DNA from: a virus
Lineage: Duplodnaviria > Caudoviricetes
IMG/VR virus record: IMGVR_UViG_3300028914_000066
Location: 1 to 64,000 of that record
Reading direction: 5' to 3' (one strand)
DNA length: 64,000 nucleotides
Part shown: positions 9,663 to 43,047 of the stretch, piece by piece
How positions within the stretch are numbered: the first letter of the stretch is position 1
How the letters are laid out: every line of letters begins with the position of its first letter
Program-made: the position numbers and the translations under genes
The notes under the pieces: model-generated
Told to the model about the DNA's origin: nothing
What the model saw: only the letters and a program-made list of their open reading frames with translations
Databases searched by the model: none

Positions 9663-9665
9663 ATT

Positions 9666-10274
9666 ATGATTAATAAATCTCTAATAATAGATAGTCTTTT
9701 GGAGATAGATGATACAGGTATGCCTAAAGCTCCAGGACTTAGACAACTATTAGATCGTGATATTAGAGAATTATATCAAAGAGATAAGACTGAAGATAAG
9801 AGTAAGTATATAAAAGAATGTATAGTTATTTATTATCTTGGAGATCCTAAATCTCCTGCTAAACAAGCTGGTCTTAGTGATCCTGAAGCTTTAGTACTTG
9901 CTATACAACAAGCAGGTTTAAAAGAAGATTATGTTCCAGATGAATTAGTTGTAAGACTTATTCAAAGGTATTATAATGAAAATATTACTGAAGCTGGTAG
10001 AACTTTAGAGAATTTACAACAAGTTGTTCATAATATGAATCTTGCTGTATCAGCTATTAATAATATTCTTAATGAAAGACTTAATACAGGAATTAATCTT
10101 GATAATGCAAGTCAAGTAATAGGAATGATGGATAATATAGCAGACAAAGCATCACAACTTCCTAAATTAATTAAAAGTTTAGAAGAAGCAAAGCAAAATC
10201 TTATTGAGGAAAAGAATACTGAAATTGCTCGTGGTGGTGGTCAAGTATTAAGTTCTATGAAAGCAGGAAATTGA
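9666..10274 (+). CDS. conserved hypothetical helical protein
   Basis: 202-aa ORF; function not assignable. Confidence 0.75.
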   Translation: MINKSLIIDSLLEIDDTGMPKAPGLRQLLDRDIRELYQRDKTEDKSKYIKECIVIYYLGDPKSPAKQAGLSDPEALVLAIQQAGLKEDYVPDELVVRLIQRYYNENITEAGRTLENLQQVVHNMNLAVSAINNILNERLNTGINLDNASQVIGMMDNIADKASQLPKLIKSLEEAKQNLIEEKNTEIARGGGQVLSSMKAGN

Positions 10275-17835: not shown

Positions 17836-18606
17836 ATGCCTAAAAGAAGTTTAGAACTAGGTGGTAGAAAAGAATATACTGAAGAAGAAATACAACAAGC
17901 TTTTAATAATCCTTCAGTTAGACAAGCATATCTTGAAAGTGGTTTTGATAGTTTAGCATATAATAAAGGAAGTGGTGCTACCGGTATATATCAAATAACA
18001 CAAGGAGTTATAGATGATTATAATAAAGCTAATAAAACTAATATAAAATTAGCTGATATGATTCATCCTACACCAGCAAAAAAGGTTTATGATTGGGAAA
18101 TGAATGAACTTTATAATGCTAGTTGGCAACAGAATCCCAATATGACTGAAGATGTTAGAAGAGCCAGAGCCTATTATGCATATAATGCTGGTAGAGGTAA
18201 AGCTAGAACTTCATTAAATGATCTTGCTGCTAAAAAAGTTAATATACATACTAATCTTGATTTTGTTAATTATATTAATCCTGAAAGCAGAGATTATGTT
18301 AATTTTATGATGACAGGACAAGGAAATGATGTTCATAGAAATTATGAACAATTTAAAAAAGCTTTTTTAAAAAATCCTGATGTTATTAAACAAATTAATT
18401 TTGAAAATGGAGGATATATTAGCACGCCTGTAAGAAGAACATTAGCAAATGGTGGTGGAATTTATATTAAACCTTCTCATAGAGGTAGACTTACTGAATT
18501 GAAAGCAAGAACTGGTAAAACTGAAAGTGAGCTTTATAATGATGGTAATCCTGCTCACAAGAAAATGGTAGTATTTGCAAGAAATGCTCGTAAATGGAAT
18601 CATTGA
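17836..18606 (+). CDS. lytic transglycosylase (SLT) with crAss-type C-terminal domain
   Basis: ES...GATGIYQI...AYNAG motifs; C-terminal IYIKPSHRG...FARNARKWNH. Confidence 0.85.
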   Translation: MPKRSLELGGRKEYTEEEIQQAFNNPSVRQAYLESGFDSLAYNKGSGATGIYQITQGVIDDYNKANKTNIKLADMIHPTPAKKVYDWEMNELYNASWQQNPNMTEDVRRARAYYAYNAGRGKARTSLNDLAAKKVNIHTNLDFVNYINPESRDYVNFMMTGQGNDVHRNYEQFKKAFLKNPDVIKQINFENGGYISTPVRRTLANGGGIYIKPSHRGRLTELKARTGKTESELYNDGNPAHKKMVVFARNARKWNH

Positions 18607-20298: not shown

Positions 20299-21774
20299 AT
20301 GTACGCACTTAGAGAAGTATCTCGTGGAAACTTTGATGATCGTGGTTATTCTAATGAAGAAACTATTGCTCATCTGGCTTTAAGTAAGCCGTCAGAAATT
20401 AACTCTATTCTCACCTATACTTATGGTATGGATGATGATAGATTCCCACTTACTTTCTTAACTGAAGGTCAAGGACAGATTGGTGTTGTTGATATTAATG
20501 AAGTTGAGTGGACTTGGAAGACAATGGGTAGAATGAAGTTTACTGACTATGTTCTTTACTTTAATTCTGCTAATACTACTCCTGGTAAAGGTGGTGCTAT
20601 TTTTGAAGTAGAATTTGCTACACATTGGTTTATTGAACAATATGGACTTATTGCACCTGATGGTCATACACAAGTTCGTATTATGAAAGACCTTGGTCCT
20701 GGTGCTCACGGTGGTTATGTTTATCGTCTTAAACTTACTAATCCTGATCCTAATGCTTTTGTTGCTCTTGGAAATCTTGCTAAGGGTATGTATTGGGGTA
20801 TGACTGCTCCTACTATTCCTCAGAGTTATTCAAAGGGTAATAGAAGTAATGTTATGGGACCTGGTAAGATGAAGAGTCAGCTTGAGTTCCATCGTTATAG
20901 TAAAGAGATTGCTGGTAATCTGTCTAATCAGATTGTTACTTATGAATTTAAGACAAAGAATGGTGGTACTACTAATCTTTGGATTAATGAAGAGATGCGT
21001 CAGCATGATATTACCCTTCGTGTAATGGATGAAGAACGTTTATGGTATGCTGAATATAACCGTAATGAAGAAGGCGTTATTACTCTTGTAGATCCTGATA
21101 ATGGTCAGCCTATTCCTCATACAGCTGGTATGCAGCAGATTTGTCGTGAGGCTAACTATGAAACTTACGGTGAATTTTTAACTATTAACAAGATTGAACG
21201 TTCAATAGGTGATATTCTTGACAAGCAGACTGATAGTGGTACAATGGAAGTTGTACTTGCTGCTGGTAAGGGTTTCATGGCAGACTTTGATGAAGCTATT
21301 CGTAATGATGCTCGTGCTGAAGGTTTTGCTACTCCTCTTGGTGATAAGATGATTGAAGATTACAATGGTGGTCTTTCATATGGTAAGTATTTCCGTAGAT
21401 ATAAGACTATTGATGGTCATATTATCACTGTAAAGCATCTTGCTATGGCAGATAAGGGTACAAATGCTGAAATGGATCGTGCTAATGGTAATGTGCATCC
21501 TCGTACTGGACTTCCTATGAGTTCTCACCAGGCATTTATGATTGACCTTTCAACTTATGAAGGTGTTCGTAATGTTCGTAAGGTTCGTCAGAAAGGTCAG
21601 ATTTATCATCAGGGTGTTATTAAGGGTTTGACTCCTATACCTGCTAGTTGGGGTGCTGTTCCTACTAATAGCTTAGCTACTGATGTTGATGTTTCACGCT
21701 ATGAAATTAAGAATAGCTATGGTCTGCAAGTTAATAATGCAGAGAAGATGATGCAAATTAAGTGTGTTATGTAA
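20299..21774 (+). CDS. major capsid protein
   Basis: 491 aa; DDRGYSNEETIAHL...YGMDDDRFPLTFLTEGQG recalled from crAssphage MCP; high-expression codon bias. Confidence 0.93.
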   Translation: MYALREVSRGNFDDRGYSNEETIAHLALSKPSEINSILTYTYGMDDDRFPLTFLTEGQGQIGVVDINEVEWTWKTMGRMKFTDYVLYFNSANTTPGKGGAIFEVEFATHWFIEQYGLIAPDGHTQVRIMKDLGPGAHGGYVYRLKLTNPDPNAFVALGNLAKGMYWGMTAPTIPQSYSKGNRSNVMGPGKMKSQLEFHRYSKEIAGNLSNQIVTYEFKTKNGGTTNLWINEEMRQHDITLRVMDEERLWYAEYNRNEEGVITLVDPDNGQPIPHTAGMQQICREANYETYGEFLTINKIERSIGDILDKQTDSGTMEVVLAAGKGFMADFDEAIRNDARAEGFATPLGDKMIEDYNGGLSYGKYFRRYKTIDGHIITVKHLAMADKGTNAEMDRANGNVHPRTGLPMSSHQAFMIDLSTYEGVRNVRKVRQKGQIYHQGVIKGLTPIPASWGAVPTNSLATDVDVSRYEIKNSYGLQVNNAEKMMQIKCVM

Positions 21775-23840: not shown

Positions 23841-24779
23841 ATGAAACAATTACTTATAGTTAATAGTGCTAAGGCACTTGATGCAGGTCTTACTTCACAC
23901 AAGGTAAATGATCTTTCTGGTCTTGAGGCTGGTGCTATAACATTCTTTGAGCTTGGTTCTGATACTGCTTTAAGTGCAGCTCCTGCTAAGAATTTTGCTA
24001 TAGCTCTGGGTATGGGTGCAAAGAATTCTCCTTTTGTAATTCCTGAAGTAGACATTGAAACTTTAACTGTAACTGAAACTCTTCCTGCTAAGGGTGTTAA
24101 GTTTAATGTTGAGTTTACTGCTCCTGCAGGTACTGCAAAGAAGGATTATACTCTTATTCTTGTGAAGAAAGATACTGTTCCTAATCAGCGTAATAAGTTT
24201 ACTATTACAGTTTCTGTAGGTTCATCTAATCTTACTGCTGCTCAGCTTGCTGCTAAGTTTGTAGAGGCTGTTAATTCAAAGGCAAATGAAATGTTTGACT
24301 TTACTGCTTCTGCAGTTAGTGATGCAGTTACTATTGAGTGCAATAATATGGGTGAACTTTGGAATGCTGTTGCAGCTGATCAGCTTGAAGGTACTTCACT
24401 TACTATTACTCAAGGTGAACGTGAGATTGGTGGTAAAGAATTTATTTCAGATTTAGCTTCACAATGTGCAGCTGGTAAGGGATTTAATTATACTGCTGAA
24501 AATGCTCATGAACTTTATCCTGGTTATCCTGAGGCTGTTGAAGCATTAGTTCCTGATGCAGTTAGTGGTTCTTGCACTGAAGGTTATTCTGTATTCAATC
24601 TTCATTTTGCTACTAAGAGAGATTTTGGTAAGCAGTTAGATGAAAGAGTATGGCAGAATGTTCATATTGCAGTTCCTATTACTAATGCAAGTTATAGTGA
24701 TATTCAGGCTATTTTAAGCGGTGCTAGTAAGTATCTTACTAAAGCTGTAGCTGATGCTACATACGAGCCTAAACTTTAA
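23841..24779 (+). CDS. abundant virion structural protein (auxiliary capsid-like)
   Basis: Ala/Thr-rich 312 aa, MCP-like codon bias, followed by a hairpin. Confidence 0.6.
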   Translation: MKQLLIVNSAKALDAGLTSHKVNDLSGLEAGAITFFELGSDTALSAAPAKNFAIALGMGAKNSPFVIPEVDIETLTVTETLPAKGVKFNVEFTAPAGTAKKDYTLILVKKDTVPNQRNKFTITVSVGSSNLTAAQLAAKFVEAVNSKANEMFDFTASAVSDAVTIECNNMGELWNAVAADQLEGTSLTITQGEREIGGKEFISDLASQCAAGKGFNYTAENAHELYPGYPEAVEALVPDAVSGSCTEGYSVFNLHFATKRDFGKQLDERVWQNVHIAVPITNASYSDIQAILSGASKYLTKAVADATYEPKL

Positions 24780-29344: not shown

Positions 29345-32300
29345 ATGGCTAAAAAATATTCAAATAATCCTATTCCTGATAAATATACTGATTGGGGTAA
29401 AGATCCTACATATCATAATTATCCTTTTAGTGGTAGATCAGTTCAAAATTATATAAAGGAACAATTTGACAATAAAGTTGGTTATCTCCATCCAGATGCT
29501 AGTAATGAAAATTATTTATTATTTGCAGATGAAGATAACTATAACCTTTATATGTCAGATCCTGTACAATATGCAGATTTGCTTATAGGTACTGTTCCTT
29601 TAGCATCAAATTATGTAGTTGCTATAGATTTAGAAAATACTGAAACTATCAATTATATTAATTATGGTGATACAGGTAACTATATTCAGGCTTACTTTAA
29701 AGTTTTAAATAAAGGTGGTGCTGAAATTAGTGATGAGTTTAAAGTTACAATTACAATTCGTAATGGTTCAGCTGTAACTACACTTCATAGAAATGCAACT
29801 TATGGTACATTATTTAGCTTAAATATTGATGAATATTTAACTGAAGGAACTAATGTTGTTACTTTATCAGTAGCAGCAGTTACTTATGGTGTAGGTAGTT
29901 CTATATCATTAATGTATCATGCTATTGTTCTTAGAGTATCTGATGATTTAGATTTATCAGAAGTTTATGGTTCTGAGAATGAAGTTATTGAAGCTGCTGT
30001 ACATATTGAAGGTACAGGTACTAAAAGAATTGAATGGTTTGTTGATGGAGTTCAACTTCCTTTTGATTCTCAAACTGATGAAACATCTCAATCTTCTACA
30101 ACTTTAACAAGATATATTTCTGTATCACAATTAGCTGAAGGTAGACATAATCTTCAATATAGGGCAGTTGTTAATATTAATAGTGTTAATTTCTATAGTG
30201 ATACTCAATATAGAGATTTCATTGTTTATAGAGGACAAACTTTAGATACTATTATTGTCAATTCTTTCTCTTATAGGGGAGTTTCTCTTATTGATCCTAC
30301 TGATGATCCTATTGATTTGGGTTCAGTAGAGCAATATATGACAAAAGAAATAAAGTATGCTATTTATAATCCTAATAATGTAGCAGTAAATTCTCTTGAA
30401 ATAACTATTGCTGGTAAAACTACTACAGTAAATGCTGATAATTATAATGAATATACTTATGAATTAAAAGCATTTAGTGCAGGTTCAACAAGTTTATCAT
30501 TTAGTTTAAATGGTACAACATTGGAATATAATGTAGATGTTGAACAATCAAGTTTAGATTTAGATACAATAGGTAATACTGAATTTGAATTTGAAGGTAA
30601 TTGTAGAGTTAATACATCTATTGATAAACGATTAGAGAATTGGTCTTTCCATGCTTTGAGTGGTAGTACTTATGCTGCTTCTATGAGTGGATTTGATTAT
30701 ACTGAAAGAAATGGTTGGACAGGTGAAGGATTAATGATAGGTGCTGGAGCTTCTCTTGCATTTAATTGTGCGCCTTTAAATTATAATATTGTTCAAAATG
30801 GTGGTACATTTGAATTTGAATTTGAAACAAGACGAGTTCTTGATGATGATGAAATAATTTGCACTTTGATGCAAAATGGTGTTGGTATTAGAATTACTGC
30901 ATCTGAAGCTAAGATTGTATCACAACAAGGTGTTGAATTATCTTGTAAATATAAAGCTGAAGAAAGAAATAGAATTACATTTGTAATTAATCCTTTAAAT
31001 GCTGCTGTTAATAAAGGTCTTGTATTTATCTTTATTAATGGTATTCTTTCTGGTGTAAAGAATTATCAAGTTGGTGATAGTTTTACATCAAATATATATG
31101 CTGTATTTGCAGGTAGTGCTGATGCTAATATTGTTCTTTATCAATTAAGATTTTATAGAAGAGCTTTACGTCTTGATGAAGTTCTTAATAACTATATTCT
31201 TTACAGACCTACTGTTGATGAATTATTAGAAGCTTATGATAAGAATGATATTTATACAGGTGGTTCATTATCACTTGATAAACTTTCTGCTCAAACTCCT
31301 ATTATAATTATAACAGGTAATGTTCAAGAACTTCAAGACTTTACAAAAGCAGATAAAGGAACATATAGAAAGATGGCTAAGATTGAAGTTATAAATACTG
31401 ATGATCCTACTAGAAATCTTACTCTTGTTGATGCTAGTATGCGTTGTCAGGGTACATCTTCTATGAACTATCCTAAAAAGAATTTCCGTTTCTATACTCA
31501 GGCTGATAGTAAAGATGAAACTGTAGCATCTTATACAACTAAGATGTACGATTATGAAGGTACTGAATATACAGGTGAAGATAGACTTTATGCTTTCAAA
31601 CAAGGTGCTCAGCCAGTTAAAACTTGGTGTTTGAAAGCTGATTATGCTGAATCTTCTTCAACACATAATACAGGTACTGCAAGACTTTGGAATAATCTTC
31701 TTAAAAATGCAGTTATTCAGAATATAGATCAAAGATATTGTCAAAAAGGAAGTATTCCTTATAATGGTACTACTCCTTGTAGAACACAAGCTCAGCAAGC
31801 TGCTATTGATAATAACTATGAATATGATGTTCGTACTGCTATTGATGGATTTCCTATTGTACTTTTCTATCATCTTAATGAAAATGATCCTCTTATATTC
31901 TTAGGAAAATATAATTGGAATAACGATAAATCAACTGAATCAGTATTTGGTTTTAAAGATGTTCCTGGCTTTAATAATGAACATATGGAATGTTGGGAAG
32001 TTGTTAATGGTGACTATCCTGAAAACTTATTTACTGATTTAAGTAATTGGGATACTGATATTCAATATGAAGGTAAAACCATGAAAGGATGGCAACGTGC
32101 TTTTGAAGCTCGTTATCCTGATGATAGTGGTAAACCTTCAGAACAAACTCGTGCAGATCAAGCTCTTAAAACTTTTGCAACTTGGATTAATGGATTGAAA
32201 ACTGCTGCTAAAGTTCAAGGAGGTCAGGTAGTTGTAGACGATGTTTCAGTTATGGCTACATTTAGTGAACAAAAATGGCTTCATATGGATGTTTATAAGA

Positions 32301-35300
32301 TGGCTGCTTATTATGTTTATCTTATGCGTCAAGGAGCTGTAGACCAGACTGTTAAAAATGCAATGTTTACAACTGAAGATGGTCAGCATTGGTATTATAT
32401 TCTTTACGATAATGATACTATTAATGGTTTGGATAACAATGGTGCATTAGCATTTGGATATAATATTGATAGACAAACTATTGATCCTAGAACAGGTAAT
32501 AGTTATTGTTATGCTGGTCATGATTCTGTTCTTTGGAATAATCTTGAAGCTGATGCTGATTTTATGGCAATTGTTAAAATTGTAGACCAAGCTCTTTATA
32601 ATGTAGGTCTTACATATGCAGCTGCTATAAATATGTATAATAATGAACAATCTAAGAAGTGGTCTGAAAGAATACATAATCTTGATTCTCAGTATAAGTA
32701 TCTTGATCCTTGGCTTAATGATAATAACTCAGTAGGTCTTCCTAAACTTCAAGGTGCTCGTGATACTCATCGTCAATGGTGGTTATCTAACAGATTTGCA
32801 TTATATGATGCAATTAATGTTACAGGTGCTTATAAAGCTAATGTATTCCTTGTACGTGTATCTTCTGTTACATTACCTGCTCCTGTAAATGCTTATATAA
32901 CTCCTGCTAGAACAGGTCAAGTTTATGGTTATGGTAAAGGTGGTGTACCTATAGTTGCTGGTGTAATTGGAACTGTTGATGTTCCTATTGCTATGCAAAT
33001 TAGCGATGAACTTTATGTTGGTGCATCATTAGATTTCTATAATGCTGTATTTGCTAAGAAGATTGATATTTCTGCTATATCTCAATATCTTACTGAAATT
33101 CATCTTGAGGCTATTAATTCAGAAGCTTTTGATTCTTCACTTGAAGAATTGATTTTAGGTACTGAAATTTCTGAAGTAAATGTTAATGCTTTAACACAAT
33201 TAACTAATTTAGGTAAAGCTAAATATTTAAAGAAACTTGGTATTTGCAACTTTAATGGTCTTGTAAGTATTGATTTATCACAAAATAATTATCTTGAAGA
33301 ATTAGATGCTCGTGGGTGTGCTAATTTAACTAATATAGTATTTCCTGATGCAGCACCTATTAGTGCATTATATTTGCCTGCTAATTTACAACGACTCGCC
33401 CTTAAAGAGATAACAACATTACAAACTTTAAGTTTAGTAAATAATGGTGAAACTATTACAAATATTGATATTCGTAATTGTAATATTGCTGGATTTACAG
33501 ATGCACCTACTAAACTTTTTGCTTGGATGAATGCTAGAGGTGATGTTCAAGGTCAATTAGATGTTTATGTAGATAATATTAATTGGAATAATATAGATCC
33601 TGATGATATTATTGAGTTTGGTCAATATGTTAAATCTAAAGGTTATCTTACATTAAAAGGTAGATGTGTTCTTTCTAGTTTAACTCTTGAACAAGTTGAT
33701 AGTTTAAGAGAAGTATTTGGTAATAATTGTTTTGATGCTGATGCTTCACTTAGATTTATTGCTACAGGTATATTCTTTACAGGTCCTGATGATATACTTT
33801 CTGATGGTCAATATCAATATGCTGTTGTAAATGCTACTGGTGCACAAGGTACTATTACATATTCTATTACTCAATCTGCTAGTATTACAGGATTAACTAT
33901 TAGTAATCAAGGTTTACTTACTGTTCCTGAAGTAACAGGTAGTGATAAAAATATTACAATTCGTGCTACTTTTGAGGATGCAACAACAGGTGATATTACT
34001 AATGAAACAATGAATATTGTTGTAAGAAAACGTGTATATCCTGCAAATGCTACTATTAATGGTCCTGCTAGAGTTGAAAGTAGAGAAACATATAATTGGT
34101 CTACAACTACAACAGGTATTAATACAAATGATAAAATGTATGCAGAATGGACTTTAACAGGTGATATTACTAATTCTGTTAGAATAGCATCTCAAAATTT
34201 ACAATCTTGCATACTTGAATTATTTGGTAGTCCTATAAATGAAACTGGTACTTTAACATTAACATTAAAGAAAGTTGCTGATGATAGTACAATTCTAACT
34301 ACAACTATGAATGTATCAGCTTTTAATAATTCTATTGCATTTACAAAAGAAACAGATCCTTATCTTGTAGAAGTAATGCATAGTAATTATAATGCTAATG
34401 GGGATCTTCTTTGTGCAAGTGCAGATTATATGACTAAAGCAGAATGTAATGCAGTTGTAAATGAAGATTTATATCAACATTTAACTCCTACACAAGCTAA
34501 TAGTATATTTTATAACAATACTAATTTTAGAAATTATTGTACAAATTTAGATGCTTTAAAATATTTTACTGGACTTACAGAAATACCAGATTATTGTTTT
34601 TATGCATGTAATATAATTGAAATAACAATACCAGAAAATATAGTAGTAATAGGCAATAATGCGTTAAAATATTATAATACTGTAAATAATGAATCTTCTT
34701 ATAAATTAAATAAATTAGAATTTATAGATAATATAAAACCTATTACAATAAATGGTTTAAATTTAAGAATAAATTCAGATTTAATATTTACAAAACCTAT
34801 AATTATTACACAATCAGCTGGTTTATGTTTTTGGAATAATAATAGAGATATTTTACGTACTGTAACATTCAATAAATTAAATATAAATAATGGTTCAGTA
34901 TGTACTGGTGGTATTGGTAGTAGTGGAAGCTATTGGCTTACTAGTAATATAACATTAAAAGTTTTAGAATCAGATTATATAAAACAAGAAAATTATGGTT
35001 GTTTTTATGCAAAAGATATAGAAATATATTTTGAATTATCAAATGATAATAATTATAAATATTTTGTTAACGACATTTCAAATTTATTTTTTAAAGATAC
35101 AACAATAATTCCAGATAGGGTTATAGCCAACGTAACTAATTTAGATGTAAATATTTATTGTGATAAGGAAATAAATTATATAGGAAACTATTATCTTTAT
35201 GGCAAATTATATTTGCTTAATAATACAAGTGTTCCTCAAACTTGTAATTTAATTAATTCACGTCTTGGAGGAAAATGCATTGTGGTTCGTCATGATATGT

Positions 35301-36136
35301 TATCAGCTTTCCAAAATGCATTTCCTGCTATTGCAGATCATTTTACTGATGAATTTACACCAGAAGGCGATCCTGTAGATTTTACAGTTACAGGCGATGA
35401 TGTTCCTGGACAAGCTATAGGAACTATTCTTCATGTAGCTAAAACTTATAATGGTCATTACGCTGATGGAACTCAAGGACAAGAAGTAATAGTTGAAGAT
35501 ATGGAACAAGAGGATAACTTCTTTGCTCAAAATGAAGGTAATACACCTATTACAAGAACTTTTAATGTTACAATTGATACAATTACAAAAAGTTGTACTA
35601 TAAATCAAGAAGTAATAGATAATACTTTGAGTGAATTTGAGTATCCAACAGGAAATAATATTAAAGTTATTTATGGTACAACATATAAAGATGATATTAT
35701 AAATCTTTATATAGATAATAAAAAGAAAATTATAAACAGAACTAATTATAATATACAAAATTCTGGTTATAATGTATTAATGAAATTAAATTCAAATATA
35801 ACAAATAGTACAAGTTTATACGGAACTGCAATTAAAAAAGTTAAACTTAAAAATATTAATAATATATATAGTTCAATATTTGAGCGATGTTCTAATTTAA
35901 CTAATGTAGAATTTCCTTCTACTTTAAGTACATTTAAAGGAGATTTATGTAAAAATTGTCCATTAACAGAATTAATATTTTTAAGTATAACAGCTCCATC
36001 TTATTATCAATCTGTAAGTCTTAATACAACAGGTTGGGGTGAAAATGGCATTCTTAAATATCCTCAAGGTTCTAATTATTCTAATATTACAAGTAGAATT
36101 CCTTCAGGTTGGACTACAGAAGAATTAACAATTTAA
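29345..36136 (+). CDS. giant multidomain tail/receptor-binding protein (beta domains, CotH-kinase-like, LRR, Ig-like, BspA-like LRR)
   Basis: QGTSS..YPKKNFR, KADYAESS, DQTVKN, YDNDT; LxxLDLSxNxxLEELD repeats; LKYFTGLTEIPDYCF and FERCSNLTNVEFP. Confidence 0.8.
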   Translation: MAKKYSNNPIPDKYTDWGKDPTYHNYPFSGRSVQNYIKEQFDNKVGYLHPDASNENYLLFADEDNYNLYMSDPVQYADLLIGTVPLASNYVVAIDLENTETINYINYGDTGNYIQAYFKVLNKGGAEISDEFKVTITIRNGSAVTTLHRNATYGTLFSLNIDEYLTEGTNVVTLSVAAVTYGVGSSISLMYHAIVLRVSDDLDLSEVYGSENEVIEAAVHIEGTGTKRIEWFVDGVQLPFDSQTDETSQSSTTLTRYISVSQLAEGRHNLQYRAVVNINSVNFYSDTQYRDFIVYRGQTLDTIIVNSFSYRGVSLIDPTDDPIDLGSVEQYMTKEIKYAIYNPNNVAVNSLEITIAGKTTTVNADNYNEYTYELKAFSAGSTSLSFSLNGTTLEYNVDVEQSSLDLDTIGNTEFEFEGNCRVNTSIDKRLENWSFHALSGSTYAASMSGFDYTERNGWTGEGLMIGAGASLAFNCAPLNYNIVQNGGTFEFEFETRRVLDDDEIICTLMQNGVGIRITASEAKIVSQQGVELSCKYKAEERNRITFVINPLNAAVNKGLVFIFINGILSGVKNYQVGDSFTSNIYAVFAGSADANIVLYQLRFYRRALRLDEVLNNYILYRPTVDELLEAYDKNDIYTGGSLSLDKLSAQTPIIIITGNVQELQDFTKADKGTYRKMAKIEVINTDDPTRNLTLVDASMRCQGTSSMNYPKKNFRFYTQADSKDETVASYTTKMYDYEGTEYTGEDRLYAFKQGAQPVKTWCLKADYAESSSTHNTGTARLWNNLLKNAVIQNIDQRYCQKGSIPYNGTTPCRTQAQQAAIDNNYEYDVRTAIDGFPIVLFYHLNENDPLIFLGKYNWNNDKSTESVFGFKDVPGFNNEHMECWEVVNGDYPENLFTDLSNWDTDIQYEGKTMKGWQRAFEARYPDDSGKPSEQTRADQALKTFATWINGLKTAAKVQGGQVVVDDVSVMATFSEQKWLHMDVYKMAAYYVYLMRQGAVDQTVKNAMFTTEDGQHWYYILYDNDTINGLDNNGALAFGYNIDRQTIDPRTGNSYCYAGHDSVLWNNLEADADFMAIVKIVDQALYNVGLTYAAAINMYNNEQSKKWSERIHNLDSQYKYLDPWLNDNNSVGLPKLQGARDTHRQWWLSNRFALYDAINVTGAYKANVFLVRVSSVTLPAPVNAYITPARTGQVYGYGKGGVPIVAGVIGTVDVPIAMQISDELYVGASLDFYNAVFAKKIDISAISQYLTEIHLEAINSEAFDSSLEELILGTEISEVNVNALTQLTNLGKAKYLKKLGICNFNGLVSIDLSQNNYLEELDARGCANLTNIVFPDAAPISALYLPANLQRLALKEITTLQTLSLVNNGETITNIDIRNCNIAGFTDAPTKLFAWMNARGDVQGQLDVYVDNINWNNIDPDDIIEFGQYVKSKGYLTLKGRCVLSSLTLEQVDSLREVFGNNCFDADASLRFIATGIFFTGPDDILSDGQYQYAVVNATGAQGTITYSITQSASITGLTISNQGLLTVPEVTGSDKNITIRATFEDATTGDITNETMNIVVRKRVYPANATINGPARVESRETYNWSTTTTGINTNDKMYAEWTLTGDITNSVRIASQNLQSCILELFGSPINETGTLTLTLKKVADDSTILTTTMNVSAFNNSIAFTKETDPYLVEVMHSNYNANGDLLCASADYMTKAECNAVVNEDLYQHLTPTQANSIFYNNTNFRNYCTNLDALKYFTGLTEIPDYCFYACNIIEITIPENIVVIGNNALKYYNTVNNESSYKLNKLEFIDNIKPITINGLNLRINSDLIFTKPIIITQSAGLCFWNNNRDILRTVTFNKLNINNGSVCTGGIGSSGSYWLTSNITLKVLESDYIKQENYGCFYAKDIEIYFELSNDNNYKYFVNDISNLFFKDTTIIPDRVIANVTNLDVNIYCDKEINYIGNYYLYGKLYLLNNTSVPQTCNLINSRLGGKCIVVRHDMLSAFQNAFPAIADHFTDEFTPEGDPVDFTVTGDDVPGQAIGTILHVAKTYNGHYADGTQGQEVIVEDMEQEDNFFAQNEGNTPITRTFNVTIDTITKSCTINQEVIDNTLSEFEYPTGNNIKVIYGTTYKDDIINLYIDNKKKIINRTNYNIQNSGYNVLMKLNSNITNSTSLYGTAIKKVKLKNINNIYSSIFERCSNLTNVEFPSTLSTFKGDLCKNCPLTELIFLSITAPSYYQSVSLNTTGWGENGILKYPQGSNYSNITSRIPSGWTTEELTI

Positions 36137-36149
36137 ATTAAAATAAACT

Positions 36150-36542
36150 ATGTATAAGATTGATAACATTGTATATTCAGATGCTGGTAAGCTTTTAATA
36201 TTTGATAAATTTAAAGGTTATTCTCATATAGGTAATATTGAAGATTTTAGTGAAATTAAAATTAATTTAAACTTAGCTACTATTGAAAATAATATAATTA
36301 CTTTTGATGGTTTAGCTCCAATTTACATTAATGAAACTAATAGTAAATATAATTATGGAAATTGGAAGAAACATATTATTAATCTAAGATATTCTAACGA
36401 TGATCAAATAGCTATCATTTTAAATAAAGATAGTGGTGATGAAAAGGATTTATTAAGATATAATAAAATGCAAGAATGGAGAGTATGGGCTGGACAACTT
36501 GCTAATAAAATCTTAGAAATGCTTAATATTAACAATAATTAA
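36150..36542 (+). CDS. putative tail fibre assembly chaperone
   Basis: RYSNDDQIAIILN...MQEWR; directly after fibre gene. Confidence 0.55.
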   Translation: MYKIDNIVYSDAGKLLIFDKFKGYSHIGNIEDFSEIKINLNLATIENNIITFDGLAPIYINETNSKYNYGNWKKHIINLRYSNDDQIAIILNKDSGDEKDLLRYNKMQEWRVWAGQLANKILEMLNINNN

Positions 36543-36553: not shown

Positions 36554-36596
36554 TGATAGTCTGAAGATAGTAATATATCTTTGGACTATCATTTAT
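36554..36596 (+). terminator. intrinsic terminator
   Basis: TGATAGTCTGAAGATA-loop-TATCTTTGGACTATCA then TTTATT. Confidence 0.7.
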
Positions 36597-36997: not shown

Positions 36998-37197
36998 CTG
37001 CTAATGAAGAGAAAGAACTACTTAGATTAACTAAAGAAAATAACTTTATGTTAAAACAAATGTATGGTTATATTTCTCATCATATAGCAAATATTAATCA
37101 AGAGAATACGGATGACTTTATTAGAAATATTCTTGCTAATGTTATTTCTAACTCCCCTTTAAAAGGAAATGATAACAATGGATTTAACAATAGATGA
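36994..37197 (+). CDS. hypothetical protein
   Basis: 67 aa, ATGA overlap. Confidence 0.65.
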   Translation: MTANEEKELLRLTKENNFMLKQMYGYISHHIANINQENTDDFIRNILANVISNSPLKGNDNNGFNNR

Positions 37198-37252
37198 TAA
37201 TACTAAAAATAAAATAATTAATCGTTATATTAATAAATTAAAACTTAAACGT

Positions 37253-37756
37253 ATGGAACTTAAACACACTGTTTCTTTAATGCTTAGTTCTGATTATAAA
37301 GAACGTTTTATAGCAGAGTATCTTCAAGTTAAAATTAGATATGAAAAACTTATTGCTATGTGTAATAAGTGGGATGAAGGTAAACTTGAGTTTACACCTA
37401 CTTGTCCTAGAAGTCTTTATGCTGACCAACTTGGATATATGCAAGCTTATATGTCAGTTCTTGAAGAACGTGCTAAACTTGAAGGTATTGATTTATCTGA
37501 AGAAACTTTAGCTCATAGAACAGAGTATGTTCCTAGAGTTAAGGAATTTAGACAACTTGGTGATGAATTAATTCAATCTGTTAAAGAACTTCAACCTTCT
37601 AAAGAAGTTGAATTAAGTATAATTAAATTTCAAGAAGGTGTTATGTGGTTAGGTATGGAACTTAAACGTATTAATGAACCTAATCCTTATCCTAATAGCA
37701 AAGATGCTAGCACAGGAAACGTTATTGATAAAACAGCTGATGGTTTAAAACTTTAA
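37253..37756 (+). CDS. two-domain protein: crAss001_48-like domain plus Acb2/Tad1-like helical hairpin
   Basis: MLSSDYKERFIAEY...PTCP...QL..M..Y..VLEER and PSKEVELSIIKFQEGVMWL; likely start ATG 37253. Confidence 0.6.
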   Translation: MELKHTVSLMLSSDYKERFIAEYLQVKIRYEKLIAMCNKWDEGKLEFTPTCPRSLYADQLGYMQAYMSVLEERAKLEGIDLSEETLAHRTEYVPRVKEFRQLGDELIQSVKELQPSKEVELSIIKFQEGVMWLGMELKRINEPNPYPNSKDASTGNVIDKTADGLKL

Positions 37757-37759: not shown

Positions 37760-38083
37760 ATGGAAAATATTATTAATGAGATTATTCAATCAATTCTTAG
37801 TAGTTTTGATTTTGCTTTTTGTCTTATAGTTAATTTAGCAACTTACTTTGTTATTCAAGGTCTTACTGCTTGTAAACTTAATCTTGGTACTTGGGCTAAA
37901 AGAGGCATTTTAGTAGCAATCATTCTTCTTACGGGGGTGCTTTATAAGGTTACTAATGCTGATGATATAAGAGTTCTTATTAATAGTGCAATACTTGCAC
38001 CTGTTAGTTGGAGTTGGATATTTAAACCTATACTTAAATATTTAGGTCTTGATTATAAAAAGAAAGAAGATGGCAAAGAGTAA
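37760..38083 (+). CDS. putative holin
   Basis: 107 aa, three hydrophobic helices, charged C-terminus. Confidence 0.6.
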   Translation: MENIINEIIQSILSSFDFAFCLIVNLATYFVIQGLTACKLNLGTWAKRGILVAIILLTGVLYKVTNADDIRVLINSAILAPVSWSWIFKPILKYLGLDYKKKEDGKE

Positions 38084-38204
38084 TTCAAGTAAAAGTTCCA
38101 ATAGTAAATCCAATAGTTCTAGACGACCTCAACCTAAATCTCCTCCTGGTGGTTATAGTGGTAAAAGAACTAGGTATGATGAAGGAGGAGAAATTGATTG
38201 GTAA
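38070..38204 (+). CDS. 44-aa basic Ser-rich micro-protein (not in ORF track)
   Basis: MAKSNSSKSSNSKSNSSRRPQPKSPPGGYSGKRTRYDEGGEIDW overlapping both neighbours. Confidence 0.6.
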   Translation: MAKSNSSKSSNSKSNSSRRPQPKSPPGGYSGKRTRYDEGGEIDW

Positions 38205-38568
38205 AGCTCTTTATAAAATAAGTTTGTATCTGCTAGAGAAGATACCAATGGTAACTGCGGTATTGTATCTAGCAGATACTATTTTATCCTATTTTACAGA
38301 TAAAAGTAATGCAATTATTTCTCCTATATGTGGAATGTCATTACTTCCTATTATTTTCTTTTATGTTACTTCTATAACATTTGGATTTTGTAAATGGCAT
38401 AGAATGTTTATACATTATATTGTAGTCAATGAAGCATTAAGTTGGTATGATTATTATGTTGGTATTCCATTAAATGCAGTTAATTTATTAATGTTAAACT
38501 TAATAATAGCAGGAATATTTTTGTTTTTAATAATATATTTCAAGTTTAGAGTATGCGTGAAGGATTAA
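38176..38568 (+). CDS. multi-pass membrane protein
   Basis: 3-4 hydrophobic segments, FGFCKWHRM; ATG start near 38176. Confidence 0.7.
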   Translation: MMKEEKLIGKALYKISLYLLEKIPMVTAVLYLADTILSYFTDKSNAIISPICGMSLLPIIFFYVTSITFGFCKWHRMFIHYIVVNEALSWYDYYVGIPLNAVNLLMLNLIIAGIFLFLIIYFKFRVCVKD

Positions 38569-38846
38569 GAATGTTGTTAGTTAGAGAATTAAGAGAACTA
38601 GCTACAAATATAGAACTTGATAGATGTGAGGCAACAGATGAACAAGGTTTAGATGTATTAGATCTTCTTCGTCATAAACCTATGTATAAAGAACAATCAT
38701 ATGAATATCTTGGATTAGGTAGAAGTAGATTTGATGATTTAGTTCGTGATGGTATTCTACCAAAAGGTAGAAAAGATAAAGGTGGAAAACTTTATTGGTA
38801 TAAAGATGAACTAGATAAAGCAATAAGAGATTATAAAGTAAAGTAA
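38553..38846 (+). CDS. AlpA/excisionase-like HTH DNA-binding protein
   Basis: KEQSYEYLGLGRSRFDDLVRDGILPKG...LYWYKDELD. Confidence 0.8.
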   Translation: MREGLRMLLVRELRELATNIELDRCEATDEQGLDVLDLLRHKPMYKEQSYEYLGLGRSRFDDLVRDGILPKGRKDKGGKLYWYKDELDKAIRDYKVK

Positions 38847-38877
38847 AATTCAGTGCCGTAAATCGGTAGTGCTTGCA

Positions 38878-38916
38878 GTCGCTAAATAGTTGATATTTAG
38901 CGGCTTTCTTTGTTTT
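38878..38916 (+). terminator. intrinsic terminator
   Basis: GTCGCTAAATA-GTTGA-TATTTAGCGGC then TTTCTTTGTTTT. Confidence 0.8.
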
Positions 38917-39030
38917 GTCGGCATTATTTTGTTTGACCTGATGTGCGTATTACCTTAGTGCCATAAATCAATTACGCGCGAAATTGAAATATTAAATTTA
39001 ATCAACTTTAAAAACTTAAATGAAGAAATT

Positions 39031-39954
39031 ATGGCACAAGATGGTGTATTTATTTATCCAGACGCAGCAAGACCTGCTACTTCTACTATTGACCCTAATC
39101 TTATGTTGGCTCTTAGTAACAATGGTGGTTTTGGTGGTAACAACGCTTGGTATTGGATAATATTCTTATGGATGATGTGGCAGAACAATGGTGGTCGTGG
39201 TAATTTTAATGACTATGTTGCATCAATGAATGGTAATGAAGGTCGTCAGTATCTTGCAGAAATAATGAATGGTAGATTTGATAATATTAATACTTTAGCT
39301 CAGATTGTTAATACAGGTGTAGAAACTGTTAAGAATGGTATATTCACTCTTCAGACTTCTATTCAGCAAGTTGGTGCTCAAGTTGGTATGTCAGGTCTTG
39401 AAGTTCAGAATGCTATTGCTCTTGGTAATGCTGGTCTTGCTAAACAATTATGTGAGTGCTGTTGCGAAAATAGACTTGCTATTGCTAATCAGACTGCTGC
39501 TCTTCAGAGTAGTCTTGCTGCTCACGATGCTAGTGTTCGTTTGCAACTTGCTCAGAATGAAGCTGCTGATCAATTAGCTGTATGTCAGCAAACTAATGCT
39601 TTATCAACTCAGGCTGATAGAAATGCTAATAGTATTCTTAATGCTATTGCTGGTCAAAATACTCTTATAACTAAGGAGTTCTGTGATTTGAAAGAACGTG
39701 AACTTCAGAATAAGATTAATACACAAGGTGATATTATTACTCAGTTACGCAATCAGATTAGTAACGATAAACAAAGTGAAATGTTTAATGCTGCTATAAA
39801 TGCTCTTAATGATAAGATAACTTTACTTGCAGCTAAACAGCCTAACACTGTTCCTGTTCAATATCCTAATCTTGTAGCTGCTAATGCTACACCTTATGTA
39901 GGTGGTTATGGATATGGTTATGGAAATGGTTTTGGCGGTGGTATTGTATTATAA
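39031..39954 (+). CDS. Gly-rich membrane-anchored coiled-coil protein with CECCC motif
   Basis: GGFGG-AWYWIIFLWMMW, QLCECCCENRL, GYGYGYG tail. Confidence 0.85.
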   Translation: MAQDGVFIYPDAARPATSTIDPNLMLALSNNGGFGGNNAWYWIIFLWMMWQNNGGRGNFNDYVASMNGNEGRQYLAEIMNGRFDNINTLAQIVNTGVETVKNGIFTLQTSIQQVGAQVGMSGLEVQNAIALGNAGLAKQLCECCCENRLAIANQTAALQSSLAAHDASVRLQLAQNEAADQLAVCQQTNALSTQADRNANSILNAIAGQNTLITKEFCDLKERELQNKINTQGDIITQLRNQISNDKQSEMFNAAINALNDKITLLAAKQPNTVPVQYPNLVAANATPYVGGYGYGYGNGFGGGIVL

Positions 39955-39977
39955 TTAACGGATAAGGAGGTAAAAGT

Positions 39978-40316
39978 ATGAATTGTTGTAATCAAGTTAT
40001 AGCAACTAATGCAGGTGGTATTCCGTATATTGTATCTACAAATACTGTTATTGGAACAGAAAATATTAATATTGCTTTAGGTTTTCGTAGAGTTCAACCA
40101 ATAGGATATATGTCAATTATTATATCTGATGTTATTCCTGCTGATGCAACTACTACTCTTCCTGTAACTCTTACTATGAATGATACTACTAGAGCTTTAA
40201 CATTGCCTAATGGTACTCCGGTAACTGCTGCAGAATTATTAAATGTAAGTAATATACTTATATTTAATGATAGAAGTAAAGGCTTATTAACATTAATGTC
40301 CCGTACAACTGCTTAA
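39978..40316 (+). CDS. hypothetical beta-rich protein
   Basis: 112 aa; AAGGAGGT upstream. Confidence 0.8.
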   Translation: MNCCNQVIATNAGGIPYIVSTNTVIGTENINIALGFRRVQPIGYMSIIISDVIPADATTTLPVTLTMNDTTRALTLPNGTPVTAAELLNVSNILIFNDRSKGLLTLMSRTTA

Positions 40317-40342
40317 TATAATAATTTAAAAAGTTAATAACT

Positions 40343-40843
40343 ATGTTTTCAAATTTAACGCAAGGAAGTATTCTTTATGGATATGATGCTAAAGAAACTT
40401 TTAAATATTTTACAGCTCCTATTGTTAGTGTAAGTCTACCTAGACTTAAAAATAAACCTAATGGTTTCTATCCACTTACAGAAATGGTTGTGGATATAGT
40501 TGCAACAGTTAATGGTGAAAGACGTGAGTTCCAACAAGTGCCCAGCAACACAAGTATTGCTGATTTTGGAGAAAACTCTTTTGTTATTGCTGATAGTAAA
40601 GAAGCTCTTAATGCTTTTATAGATTCTCAACTCATGAATGTTGATAACAGACTTAATAATATTGAGAAAGATAAACATTTAAAAGTTGAATATGAATCTT
40701 TACAAAAACAAATTAATCCTAATTTACGGCAATCAGTAAATGATGATGAAGTTAAAGAATTAAGAGATAAAGTTAATTCAATGGAAGGTTCACTAAAAGA
40801 AATACTTTCCTTGCTTAAACCTGGAAATGATAAAAAAGAATAA
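40343..40843 (+). CDS. hypothetical protein with C-terminal coiled coil
   Basis: 166 aa. Confidence 0.8.
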   Translation: MFSNLTQGSILYGYDAKETFKYFTAPIVSVSLPRLKNKPNGFYPLTEMVVDIVATVNGERREFQQVPSNTSIADFGENSFVIADSKEALNAFIDSQLMNVDNRLNNIEKDKHLKVEYESLQKQINPNLRQSVNDDEVKELRDKVNSMEGSLKEILSLLKPGNDKKE

Positions 40844-40849
40844 TAAATT

Positions 40850-41065
40850 ATGATGGTAGTTAAATTTCGTTCTTCTGAAAGTAAAGATACTTTAAAGAAG
40901 TTAAAGAAAATGCATAAATTTACTAAAGAACTTATTGAGTGCTTTGAAGATAAAATGCATGACGAAGATGATGATGATTATGATGAGGATTATCGTGAAG
41001 ATGAAGATTGGCGTGATGAAGATCCTCGTATGAGTAAGCGTTATCGTAGAGGTGGTATGCGTTAA
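40850..41065 (+). CDS. small charged protein
   Basis: Acidic tract followed by Arg/Gly tail. Confidence 0.75.
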   Translation: MMVVKFRSSESKDTLKKLKKMHKFTKELIECFEDKMHDEDDDDYDEDYREDEDWRDEDPRMSKRYRRGGMR

Positions 41066-41075
41066 ATTACTAATC

Positions 41076-41113
41076 AAGAGCAACGATTTCTAATACTTGA
41101 TTTCGTTGCTCTT
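41076..41113 (+). terminator. hairpin
   Basis: AAGAGCAACGA...TCGTTGCTCTT. Confidence 0.55.
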
Positions 41114-41128
41114 ATAATTTAAAAAGCT

Positions 41129-41551
41129 ATGAAACGAAGAGAAAATTTTACAGCTTATGAAGTATTACCTGATGATTTATATATTTATATGAGTCATTAT
41201 GGACCTCATTTTACTAAAGAACTTTGTGATTATGCAGTAAGTTTAATGTATGCTGATGATGAAAATGGAAATAAGAAAAATATAACTCCTTATACTAAGG
41301 AACAAGTTGAAAATCTTCTTAAATCTTATAATATAAAAGTTAAGTATGCAAAACTTTATGATTGTGTATATGTAGCTAATATGTGTAAATTTGATTATTT
41401 AGGAAGTGCTATTCCTAATGAACAATATTTAGCTAAATATATTAAAGATACATTAGATGATTCTGATGGTGCAGAAGGTCTTATGTTTAATAGATGGATT
41501 GCAGATATGAAATGGTTAGGAGAACCTATTGATTGGTCTGAATTTATATGA
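41129..41551 (+). CDS. conserved hypothetical protein
   Basis: YGPHFTKELC, YDCVYVANM..D, D.DG..G..FNRW.AD. Confidence 0.8.
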   Translation: MKRRENFTAYEVLPDDLYIYMSHYGPHFTKELCDYAVSLMYADDENGNKKNITPYTKEQVENLLKSYNIKVKYAKLYDCVYVANMCKFDYLGSAIPNEQYLAKYIKDTLDDSDGAEGLMFNRWIADMKWLGEPIDWSEFI

Positions 41552-41934
41552 TTAAACAAGTATTTAATGTAGAACATTATTGGAAGGTTATAATTTACTA
41601 TAATGTAGATTATAGCCTTTTCAATATTATAGCTAATACTTTGAAAGAAATACAATGTCCTAATTATATCATAAATGATATATATTATCAAATGAAAACA
41701 CAAAGAGCAAAAGCTGTAACAATAAGTAATTGTAAATATAAAACTAGTATTTTGCTTTTTAATAAACATTCTGATTATTATGATTATATTAATTCAGCAG
41801 TACATGAGGCTGAACATATAAAACAAGCTCTTTTAAAATGTTATAAAGTTAATGATGAAGGAGAAGCACCAGCATATACTATAGGGTTCTTAGCATCAAA
41901 GATGATAAAGAAAATGATCAATGTAATTTTATAG
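41548..41934 (+). CDS. putative zincin-like metallopeptidase
   Basis: HEAEH (HExxH) and downstream EAPAY. Confidence 0.65.
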   Translation: MIKQVFNVEHYWKVIIYYNVDYSLFNIIANTLKEIQCPNYIINDIYYQMKTQRAKAVTISNCKYKTSILLFNKHSDYYDYINSAVHEAEHIKQALLKCYKVNDEGEAPAYTIGFLASKMIKKMINVIL

Positions 41935-42364
41935 CTGTCTATATCTAAATGTTTTATAATAATTTAATTTTGGCTCTAAACGCATTAATTTTCAGGTAGT
42001 TAGATACTTAATTTAAGTTTAAATATGCCGTCAAAGCATATCCCAGCAGGGTTATGGGCTTGTTTTTCTTATTTATATATTATATATTTGCAATACATAT
42101 TATATATAATAATATTATATAATATATAATTAATAATAATATACATAATATAAATATAAGCACCCCTGTAAGAAAAGAATATACTATTCTGGGATATGGT
42201 TAAACAGATTTTCTTTCATACGCACTTATTCATATTGTGTAATTTATCTTAATAATTAGGTTAGTGATTTTGGTTAATAAACATAAAGTAGTTAGAGATA
42301 ATAACTTTAATGTTGTTCTTCTTTTACGGGGGTGCTTTAATTAAGATAATTATTCATATTTTTA

Positions 42365-43047
42365 TGGCTAGTATAAATCAACTTGTATCTGAATTTGCTC
42401 ACAGTGTTGGTATGCCCAACAATAAAGCACTTCGTGAAAATCTTAAACTATTGATTGTACAAACTCGTAATGAGGTTGTTAGACGTAGTTATGAGAATCA
42501 TGGTTATGTTGATAAAATATTAACTCAAAGATTTGAAGTTTCATTAACAAATGTTAATGATGGAGATATTCAAATTCCTGAAGGAATTGAAATAGATATT
42601 GCTAAAATAAAGAGAACTACACAAAAAGTTCCTAGACCTATAAGATTAACAAATAATCTTCCGTTTGATAGAGTAAGCTCTGTTGGTTTTGCAACTAGCA
42701 GAGTTTTTCCTTATATCAAGGAAACAAGTGCTAGATTTAGAAATGCAGTTCCAGGTCTTAGTGGAATGATTTGTTATGATTATATTAATGAATATATTTA
42801 TTTATTTCCTACTAATTGTAATAGTATAAAGTTAGATAAAATTGTAATTGAGTCTGCTTTTGAACATCCAAATGAAATTGCTATAATGCAAGGTGATGAC
42901 GAAATGACTATTGCTATGGATAATAATGAATGGTTATTATCTGAAGATATGATTGGACAAATAAAAGAATTAATATATAAGAGAGATTTACTTTCAACAA
43001 TTAGGCAGACTAATGAAATTCCTAATGAAGTAAAATTTAATAATTAA
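42365..43047 (+). CDS. tail ring/tube structural protein
   Basis: MASINQL start; YDYINEYIY, IESAFEHP; synteny. Confidence 0.65.

Follow-up and report, generated by a model that had tools for sequence, protein, structure and literature searches.

What do six adjacent, co-oriented genes make together when they stand between the giant fibre gene and a tail ring gene of a crAss-like phage? The genes in question, A to F, lie at 39031-41934 of the window, which is the whole stretch of DNA that was analysed (64,000 nucleotides; IMG/VR virus record IMGVR_UViG_3300028914_000066, positions 1 to 64,000). The window is from a divergent crAss-like phage. The six genes are found downstream of two further genes (t and h), a terminator, and a promoter-like box. 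They form an accessory and mobile cassette and are not core virion machinery. Tentatively, and with less than even confidence, we read them as a portable, late-expressed cassette that encodes a fibre-like, exchangeable appendage of the virion together with the factors that assemble and process it. An earlier account made from the DNA letters (the sequence-only reading) had listed a membrane protein, a helix-turn-helix (HTH) protein, a terminator, a leader repeat, and six genes, and each of these was found in its place. The six genes are as follows.

39031-39954, plus strand: A, 307 aa; carries GGFGGNNAWYWIIFLWMMW, LCECCCE, and the tail GGYGYGYGNGFGGG
39978-40316, plus strand: B, 112 aa; begins MNCCN; PHROG 31654; the constant partner of A
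40343-40843, plus strand: C, 166 aa; beta-rich N-terminal domain and C-terminal helix of ~60 residues; PHROG 28898 (E value, 1.2e-16)
40850-41065, plus strand: D, 71 aa; acidic, with a basic RRGGMR end; the least conserved slot
41129-41551, plus strand: E, 140 aa; Pfam DUF7841 (PF25223; E value, 1e-29) and PHROG 38431 (E value, 2.3e-34)
41548-41934, plus strand: F, 128 aa; HEAEH; by its residues a minimal zincin, with HExxH and a Glu 16 residues downstream

The cassette and its carriers

Eighty IMG/VR loci were fetched with A alone, and the partners of A were found in them by iterative hidden Markov model searches. C was present in all 80 loci, B in 77, F in 75, E in 73, and D in 50. Counted over 84 viral loci, C was in 80. 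The order A-B-C-(D)-E-F was nearly invariant in ~130 loci (the 80 viral loci and about 50 genome loci). When all flanking open reading frames (ORFs) were clustered, no other family occurred in more than 29 loci. The co-occurrence of A to F is far beyond chance.

The flanks of the cassette differ by locus. They can be ring protein 2, terminase, portal, lysis genes, capsid genes, or an integrase. The carriers are from four Crassvirales families and from temperate Bacteroidales phages. The homologous block lies just before the endolysin and terminase in cr272_1 (Suoliviridae), ahead of ring protein 2 in ctcc615 (Intestiviridae), as in the window, and between an L,D-carboxypeptidase and a gp31-like gene in cr116_1 (Steigviridae). 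It lies amid recombination genes in C3_41T2LP, a non-crass phage of Bacteroides uniformis. The crassvirus with a solved virion structure is crAss001 (PMC10172136). It belongs to the same subfamily as cr116_1, and its gp30 is directly followed by gp31, without the block. The varying genome position and the absence from crAss001 mark the cassette as accessory and mobile. The sequence-only reading had proposed a self-contained multi-gene mobile unit that recurs in unrelated gut phages, and the neighbourhood analysis bore this out. The alternative that it had named, ordinary core virion components, is rejected because crAss001 lacks the cassette.

Species-representative genomes were scanned as well, and the complete cassette turned up in chromosomes of Bacteroidales (Parabacteroides, Phocaeicola, Alistipes, Muribaculaceae, and Rikenellaceae), where it is often the final plus-strand unit ahead of an integrase. 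The plasmid collection contained essentially one carrier, a phage-like 61.8-kb element of B. thetaiotaomicron. The A family is essentially phage restricted. It contains more than 6,100 clusters (90% identity) at E values of ≤1e-3, every one unnamed and none with a Pfam family. Virulent crAss-like phages carry the cassette as commonly as temperate phages do. The hosts span Bacteroidota and Firmicutes, and the carriers are always gut, rumen, or sewage phages, which fits a habitat-linked add-on.

Distant homologues of A were retrieved from prophages of Oscillospiraceae, Lachnospiraceae, and Acutalibacter, from Butyrivibrio phage Ceridwen, and from Clostridium perfringens phage XP41-N3. They keep the Gly-flanked hydrophobic segment, the motif QLAQCCC[DE]NR, and a Cys/Gly tail such as GCGCNSGCGC. 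One of them surpasses the A protein of the window against PHROG 16490 (E value, 2.8e-36 versus 1.4e-23). In the Firmicutes phages, A is followed by a B-like protein, and the XP41-N3 version begins with MTCNRRCNCCN. The conserved layout is HTH-fam4-fam3-fam1-A-B-fam5-fam6. Such a cassette contains a small HTH protein, proteins of 126, 144, and 71 aa, A, B, and two acidic proteins with RGG tails. It was present at the following loci.

L142-L166: Firmicutes-type cassettes
L167 (Ceridwen), 7740-10122: Firmicutes-type cassette
L168 (XP41-N3), 5997-8909: Firmicutes-type cassette

When compared by profile, the partner families of Firmicutes phages showed no homology to C, D, E, or F. The HTH family matches h (hhalign, 90.8%), and there was a weak B signal (26%). 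Three Suoliviridae genera have a further layout, E'-A-B-C. The A-B core is thus shared while the other partners differ by lineage, and A-B is the keystone of a unit with lineage-specific accessory sets.

Two cultured sewage phages contain parts of the cassette and no detectable A. Parabacteroides phage PD691P3 (L086) encodes a C-like and E-like pair at 6197-7387, and Bacteroides phage BF503P2 (L087) encodes E alone, as a longer protein, at 6866-7363. Both sets lie just upstream of the endolysin. C and E may be a submodule.

The only described families among the cassette proteins are E, which has a domain of unknown function (DUF), and the catalytic motif of F. Scans of Pfam, PHROGs, NCBIfam, and PADLOC with all eight proteins (A to F, t, and h) gave only DUF7841 for E and PHROGs of unknown function. 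Literature searches on DUF7841, Crassvirales lysis genes, and the cultured carriers gave no functional data and no mention of the cassette.

The cassette proteins and the fibre-like reading

A contains a conserved DPNL motif, a Gly-flanked Trp-rich hydrophobic segment, a long coiled-coil helix, a Pro-rich linker, and a Gly/Tyr(/Cys) tail. In its AlphaFold2 (AF2) model, the overall predicted local distance difference test score (pLDDT) was 59.9. The model contains a single continuous helix of ~148 residues (122-269) at pLDDT ~80, and the rest is of low confidence. The predicted helix would be ~22 nm long if straight. An uninterrupted helix of this kind would need oligomerisation for stability. 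The length of A varies through insertions and deletions within the helix. The CCC cluster (C143-C145) is invariant and lies near the N-terminal end of the helix. The fold search with this model, which is of low confidence and essentially one helix, gave no meaningful match. No fusions of A to other domains were found among billions of proteins; one longer form of 568 aa is probably a read-through. ESM Atlas look-ups of A and B gave unnamed phage clusters only.

The hydrophobic segment of A has Wimley-White values of -10 to -16 kcal/mol in its Trp-rich forms, which indicates strong membrane partitioning. It has nearly no flanking Lys or Arg, unlike a classical membrane anchor. The sequence-only reading had suggested a membrane-anchored filament. 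A filament-like element is plausible, given the one predicted helix, and the anchor is not borne out by the flanks of the segment.

B is the constant partner of A and is a family of 369 clusters at 50% identity. Its AF2 model, made from an alignment of 102 sequences, is a beta-sandwich (pLDDT, 87.5; predicted template modelling score, 0.78). Outside its own family, B matched parts of annotated tail fibres in BFVD (E values, 5e-4 to 1e-2; TMq, 0.5 to 0.63). A 294-aa crAss-like protein named as DUF7841 containing also matched the B fold in BFVD. The best PDB match was the third bead of the Pa193 tail-fibre protein gp47, with a Z score of 5.5 and a root mean square deviation of 4.3 Å over 94 residues; the tool warns that a Z score under 8 may mean a mere common arrangement. 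The rows after it had Z scores of 3.2 to 3.5. The predicted fold is suggestive of a relation to tail-fibre domains. We also considered B as a fast-evolving receptor-binding tip, and this was unsupported. B tracks A in close pairs, where the median identity was 82% for A, 72% for B, 64% for C, 58% for E, and 46% for F.

C is unrelated to A or B by profile comparison, and the PDB profile search gave coiled-coil noise only. D has positional analogues in other loci that carry RGG or RY tails. It has a weak, subthreshold match to a tail-assembly chaperone (E value, 0.0021). E is above the DUF7841 gathering cutoff (103.5 bits versus 25.2) and covers profile positions 4 to 113 of 114. It carries an acidic DDxDxxDG motif and is the most conserved cassette member at long range. 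In the phage collection, E is restricted to Bacteroidota phages. No longer fused forms of E were found.

F is a minimal zincin metallopeptidase, as judged from its residues. The HExxH peptidase of the sequence-only reading stands, with H86, E87, H90, and E106 intact in the window and invariant in 31 diverse sequences. F of the window has no Pfam family match. Among the 31 relatives, weak matches to Peptidase_M78, MPTase-PolyVal, and SprT-like families were found in two each (best E value, 5.7e-4), under the curated cutoffs. The positional homologue of F in C3_41T2LP is annotated as a PolyVal metallopeptidase. Locus L050 contains a second F-like gene directly after the HTH gene h. PDB profile searches with B, C, E, and F gave nothing or coiled-coil noise. 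None of A to F contains a signal peptide or lipobox in its sequence, as expected for cytoplasmic assembly.

The timing of expression can be read from stop-codon recoding. In phage cr272_1, TAG is a sense codon, and an annotated tRNA-Gln (12606-12679) lies at the early/late boundary of the genome. In its cassette, in-frame TAG codons are present in A (one), C (two), and E (one). They are also present in the endolysin (two), terminase (four), and portal (four). TAG is absent from ten of the 13 early genes on the minus strand and from all five genes on the plus strand through the dUTPase; these early genes flank the tRNA. The in-frame TAG codons of cr272_1 are nearly confined to genes downstream of tRNA-Gln. 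In many other loci, A, C, and E are split into separate ORFs by the same cause. The cassette thus shares its TAG codons with terminase and portal, which puts it in the late translation set of TAG-recoded phages. The codon pattern points to late lytic expression.

The codon usage of A also resembles that of the capsid genes, and the sequence-only reading had noted a codon bias like that of the MCP gene. Its codon adaptation index against the major capsid protein (MCP) reference is 0.683. Only two long genes are higher, the MCP (0.741, self-referenced) and the gene at 23841-24779 (0.728). By codon bias, A is probably highly expressed.

From these properties we propose that the cassette makes an accessory structure like a fibre, most likely carried on the virion as an exchangeable appendage of the head or tail. 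A would form the stalk, a parallel coiled coil roughly 20 nm long, and the Gly/aromatic head and the Gly/Tyr/Cys tail of A may be attachment or cross-linking ends. B would be a tail-fibre-type beta-sandwich subunit bound to the stalk. C, D, and E may be adaptors or chaperone-like partners. F may process either a component of the cassette or the regulator. Transcription of the unit would start from its own host-type promoter behind a terminator, and the HTH protein would probably control it through the leader palindrome.

The crAss001 head fibre gp29 offers one comparison. In the phage collection, the 35 gp29 records and the 28 A records do not overlap, a count that is phylogenetically uncontrolled. 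Phage cr116_1 contains the cassette and lacks gp29. The non-overlap could be functional replacement or lineage structure. Most crassviruses lack homologues of gp21 and gp29 and may use other proteins (PMC10172136).

Several points weigh against an appendage. No virion proteome or structure was found that contains any cassette protein. The structural matches of B are modest, the gp47 bead included, and B does not evolve faster than A in close pairs. Typical receptor-binding tips evolve faster. The Trp-rich membrane-partitioning segment of A is unusual for a fibre. A fibre shared by podovirus-, siphovirus-, and myovirus-like virions needs a generic docking site, and we know of none. The cassette has its own putative promoter, an HTH protein, and a neighbour with four transmembrane segments. 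It is often beside holin and endolysin genes or the last unit before an integrase, and in C3_41T2LP and XP41-N3 it lies among nonstructural genes. The gp29 exclusivity may be purely phylogenetic.

The same features of A allow a second structural explanation, which we judge quite unlikely. It is a keratin-like matrix outside the virion, neither virion part nor lysis protein. An intermediate-filament-like, Cys-cross-linkable A would polymerise late inside the cell as a coiled-coil filament, with B to E as dedicated accessory partners and F as the maturation protease. The head-rod-tail plan, the invariant CCC, and the Cys-rich tails hold across two phyla. Cys-rich N termini of B recur (MNCCN in the window and MTCNRRCNCCN in XP41-N3), and partner proteins have RGG or Tyr-rich low-complexity tails. 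High expression is indicated by the codon bias, no fusion of A to a virion-attachment domain was seen, and the cassette is present across very different virion types. The likeness is purely architectural: neither in sequence nor in fold was there a match to crescentin, FilP, or keratins. Outside the long helix, the AF2 model of A is of low confidence, no phage need for a filament is known, and the B fold points to fibre proteins. If such a matrix exists, it might tether, embed, or protect particles of strict-anaerobe phages in egress or transit. It would be a previously unrecognised phage structure common to Bacteroidota and Firmicutes gut and rumen phages.

A third explanation takes the proteins as ejected pilot proteins. 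Packaged A would insert its head into the host membrane as a conduit, and F would be a codelivered PolyVal-type peptidase. The analogy would be to the helical tube of phiX174 protein H or to podovirus ejection proteins. The layout of A resembles the one reported for protein H. A has ~300 aa, an N-terminal Gly-rich hydrophobic segment, and a continuous helix of ~148 residues, F has its weak MPTase-PolyVal affinity, and expression is late. We consider this explanation improbable. Neither by sequence nor by fold did A match H or ejection proteins, and the cassette is also found in long-tailed phages with tape measures. Cargo and ejection proteins are already present in the carrier crassviruses, encoded by gp45/gp46-like genes downstream of the muzzle gene (PMC10172136).

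A conserved, mobile, and probably highly expressed unit of six genes must bring a real fitness benefit. Its carriers include several crAss-like families, which are among the most abundant human gut viruses. If the cassette makes an exchangeable appendage, it bears on gut-phage adhesion, persistence, host choice, and the diversity of crassvirus head fibres. If it does not, the cassette may represent phage machinery of a new class. The question is directly testable in the cultured carriers C3_41T2LP, Ceridwen, XP41-N3, and the 61.8-kb element of B. thetaiotaomicron BFG-119.

Neighbouring genes and leader signals

In the window, the giant fibre gene and then a handful of small accessory genes lie upstream of the cassette, and ring protein 2 lies downstream of it. 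The fibre-like protein of 2263 aa is encoded at 29345-36136. Tail ring protein 2 is encoded at 42310-43047 (PF25702; E value, 7e-51), and the Crass_capsid MCP is encoded at 20299-21774. Downstream of the cassette, the gene order is that of crAss001: ring, muzzle, cargo, and RNA polymerase. The crAss001 order is from the virion structure paper (PMC10172136). The genes and signals just upstream of A are as follows.

37760-38083, plus strand: o, 107 aa; three hydrophobic segments and a charged C terminus, KKKEDGKE; a context gene outside the operon
38149-38568, plus strand: t, membrane protein of ~130 aa with four transmembrane segments; start at GTG 38149 or ATG 38176
38553-38846, plus strand: h, 97-aa MerR/excisionase-type HTH protein; Pfam HTH_17 (E value, 1.8e-4, under the curated cutoff)
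38877-38905, plus strand: intrinsic-terminator-like hairpin and T-run; separates t-h from the A-F operon
38928-38958, plus strand: Bacteroidota-type promoter-like element, TTTG-N-TACCTTAG (-33/-7 boxes)
38963-38992, plus strand: leader inverted repeat with 15-nucleotide arms, 80% complementary; core TCAATT-N8-AATTGA at 38969-38988

The o gene had no match in a Pfam search. By its topology alone, o looks like a class I holin. Homologues of o adjoin the cassette in the fetched loci L002, L009, and L047. The t gene had no family match in Pfam, PHROGs, NCBIfam, or PADLOC. It is beside the cassette in 23 of the 80 viral loci, upstream or downstream, and also in genome loci. Its linkage to the cassette is loose. 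The h gene matches a PHROG of transcriptional regulators (E value, 4.7e-4) and adjoins the cassette in 28 viral loci. It is a candidate regulator of the cassette. Roughly one locus in three has t and h along with the cassette, on one side of it or the other.

Other small features surround these genes. A 195-aa protein at 37169-37756, two genes upstream of t, contains a crAss001_48 (Sequestin-type) domain (E value, 7e-20). It also has a weak match to an Acb2/Tad1 hairpin (E value, 5e-4). With this gene so near, the cassette of the window sits in an accessory island. A strong terminator-like hairpin at 36554-36591 (16 pairs and a T-run) directly follows the gene at 36150-36542, and the island seems therefore to be split into several short transcription units. 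A small ORF at 38070-38204 encodes a basic peptide rich in Ser, Lys, and Arg (~44 aa from ATG 38070). It overlaps the 3' end of o and the start of t. Far from o, two genes past the putative portal, a 256-aa protein at 17836-18606 contains an SLT lytic transglycosylase domain (E value, 6.8e-8). It could be an endolysin or a virion-associated lysin.

The neighbourhood of holin-like genes brings in the main rival explanation, a membrane complex for lysis or egress. The head of A would sit in the cytoplasmic membrane, and the complex would modulate holin triggering, envelope disruption, or release. In diderm hosts it would resemble a spanin or a fusion protein. In the window, the holin-like gene and the four-transmembrane gene are just upstream. 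In the three Suoliviridae genera with the E'-A-B-C layout, the cassette directly follows holin and LysB-like genes, and in cr1_1 it lies between the holin and an L,D-transpeptidase-type endolysin. It precedes the endolysin in cr272_1, follows the endolysin in Ceridwen, and follows the L,D-carboxypeptidase in cr116_1. Recognised lysis families were found within 3 kb in 27 of 85 loci. The Gly-flanked hydrophobic peptide, heptad repeats, and Cys cluster of A recall class I fusion proteins and i-spanins. We nevertheless consider this explanation unlikely. Lysis genes mark the ends of late operons, which are a common insertion site for any accessory gene. The carriers already have separate spanin-like candidates (DUF6549/gp27-like proteins and lipoproteins), and crAss001 lyses its host without the cassette. 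The cassette has no lipoprotein partner within it; family 10 lipoprotein genes are near some cassettes and outside them. The hydrophobic segment of A lacks flanking positive charges. Homologues of A and B in phages of monoderm Firmicutes show that outer-membrane fusion is not the general function, and a strict spanin is ruled out as the general function by the presence there of A-B, with the CCC in A.

The leader region was compared in eight relatives by alignment upstream of A. The terminator hairpin is at the matching place in all eight, with compensatory changes in its arms. About 45 nucleotides past the terminator, seven relatives contain TAnnTTTG exactly; the window contains TACCTTAG, with one mismatch. 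TAnnTTTG fits the -7 consensus of the Bacteroides sigma-ABfr promoter. The count of the promoter pattern in the whole window is not above that in shuffled sequences, so the case for a promoter comes from positional conservation only. The box is promoter-like and of host type. The leader hairpin of the sequence-only reading was in part retained. The TCAATT/AATTGA repeat is present, but its folding is weak (z = -2.1), and palindromes at a comparable place after the box, nonhomologous to it, were found in just five of the eight relatives. The repeat is a possible operator or 5' mRNA hairpin.

These signals recall a moron. An upstream terminator and a conserved TAnnTTTG box, as a putative promoter, were found, and the cassette is present in cr116_1 and absent from crAss001. 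A moron might serve superinfection exclusion, host-surface modification, or antidefence from its own promoter, also in lysogens. In temperate Bacteroidales phages, the cassette directly precedes the integrase as the final unit; in the window, it is in an accessory island beside the Sequestin/Acb2-type gene; and the pairing of an HTH protein with a palindrome is reminiscent of aca-type control. Virulent crAss-like phages carry the cassette just as commonly. Its in-frame TAG codons tie it to late translation, and B to F have no secretion signals. The PADLOC scan gave no convincing match: A matched LmuB (E value, 2.7e-4) through its coiled coil, and mad1 was matched at 5.7e-3, through coiled-coil or HTH similarity only. 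A 3-kb unit of six proteins with capsid-like codon bias is also unlike known exclusion and antidefence genes. We hold this explanation to be very improbable, the weakest of the three beside the lysis complex, behind the filament and the pilot proteins. The sequence-only reading had offered superinfection exclusion or host-surface modification as its example of a function. This fared poorly, on account of the missing signals in B to F, the late TAG recoding, and the lack of a PADLOC defence family.

Comparison with known systems

The closest likeness is to phage fibres, both tail fibres (T7 gp17 type and Pa193 gp47) and head fibres (phi29 gp8.5 and crAss001 gp21 and gp29). The cassette shares with them a long helical stalk (A, predicted), a fibre-like beta-sandwich (B, predicted), late expression, a patchy accessory spread, and the lack of secretion signals. 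It differs in that stalk and beta-sandwich are separate polypeptides, and its virion location is putative. A has a Trp-rich hydrophobic head, a CCC cluster, and a Gly/Tyr/Cys tail. There are four further genes, including the zincin, and the cassette has its own putative promoter and candidate regulator. It has no sequence homology to characterised fibres.

Spanins (lambda Rz/Rz1 and T1 gp11) and class I fusion proteins share with A an N-terminal hydrophobic segment, heptads, and conserved Cys residues. They also share the frequent adjacency to holin and endolysin genes. The cassette differs from them in having no lipoprotein partner and in having Firmicutes homologues. A lacks positive-inside flanks and is about twice the typical length of an i-spanin. 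Its AF2 model is one long helix and no hairpin.

F resembles the gluzincin-type minimal zincins of the ImmA/IrrE (Peptidase_M78), MPTase-PolyVal, and SprT groups. It has the same HExxH and downstream Glu in about 130 aa. Such zincins are often paired with HTH regulators, and F too is in a unit with an HTH protein. It differs from them in that no F member reaches a Pfam cutoff, and the HTH protein of the cassette is MerR/excisionase-like and not XRE-like.

Morons share with the cassette an upstream terminator, a host-type promoter box, and a patchy presence among close relatives. They also share its varying insertion points, and prophage cassettes are next to an integrase. The cassette differs in having six coevolving genes where morons have one or two. 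In codon usage and stop-codon recoding it is like late structural genes, and it is as common in virulent as in temperate phages.

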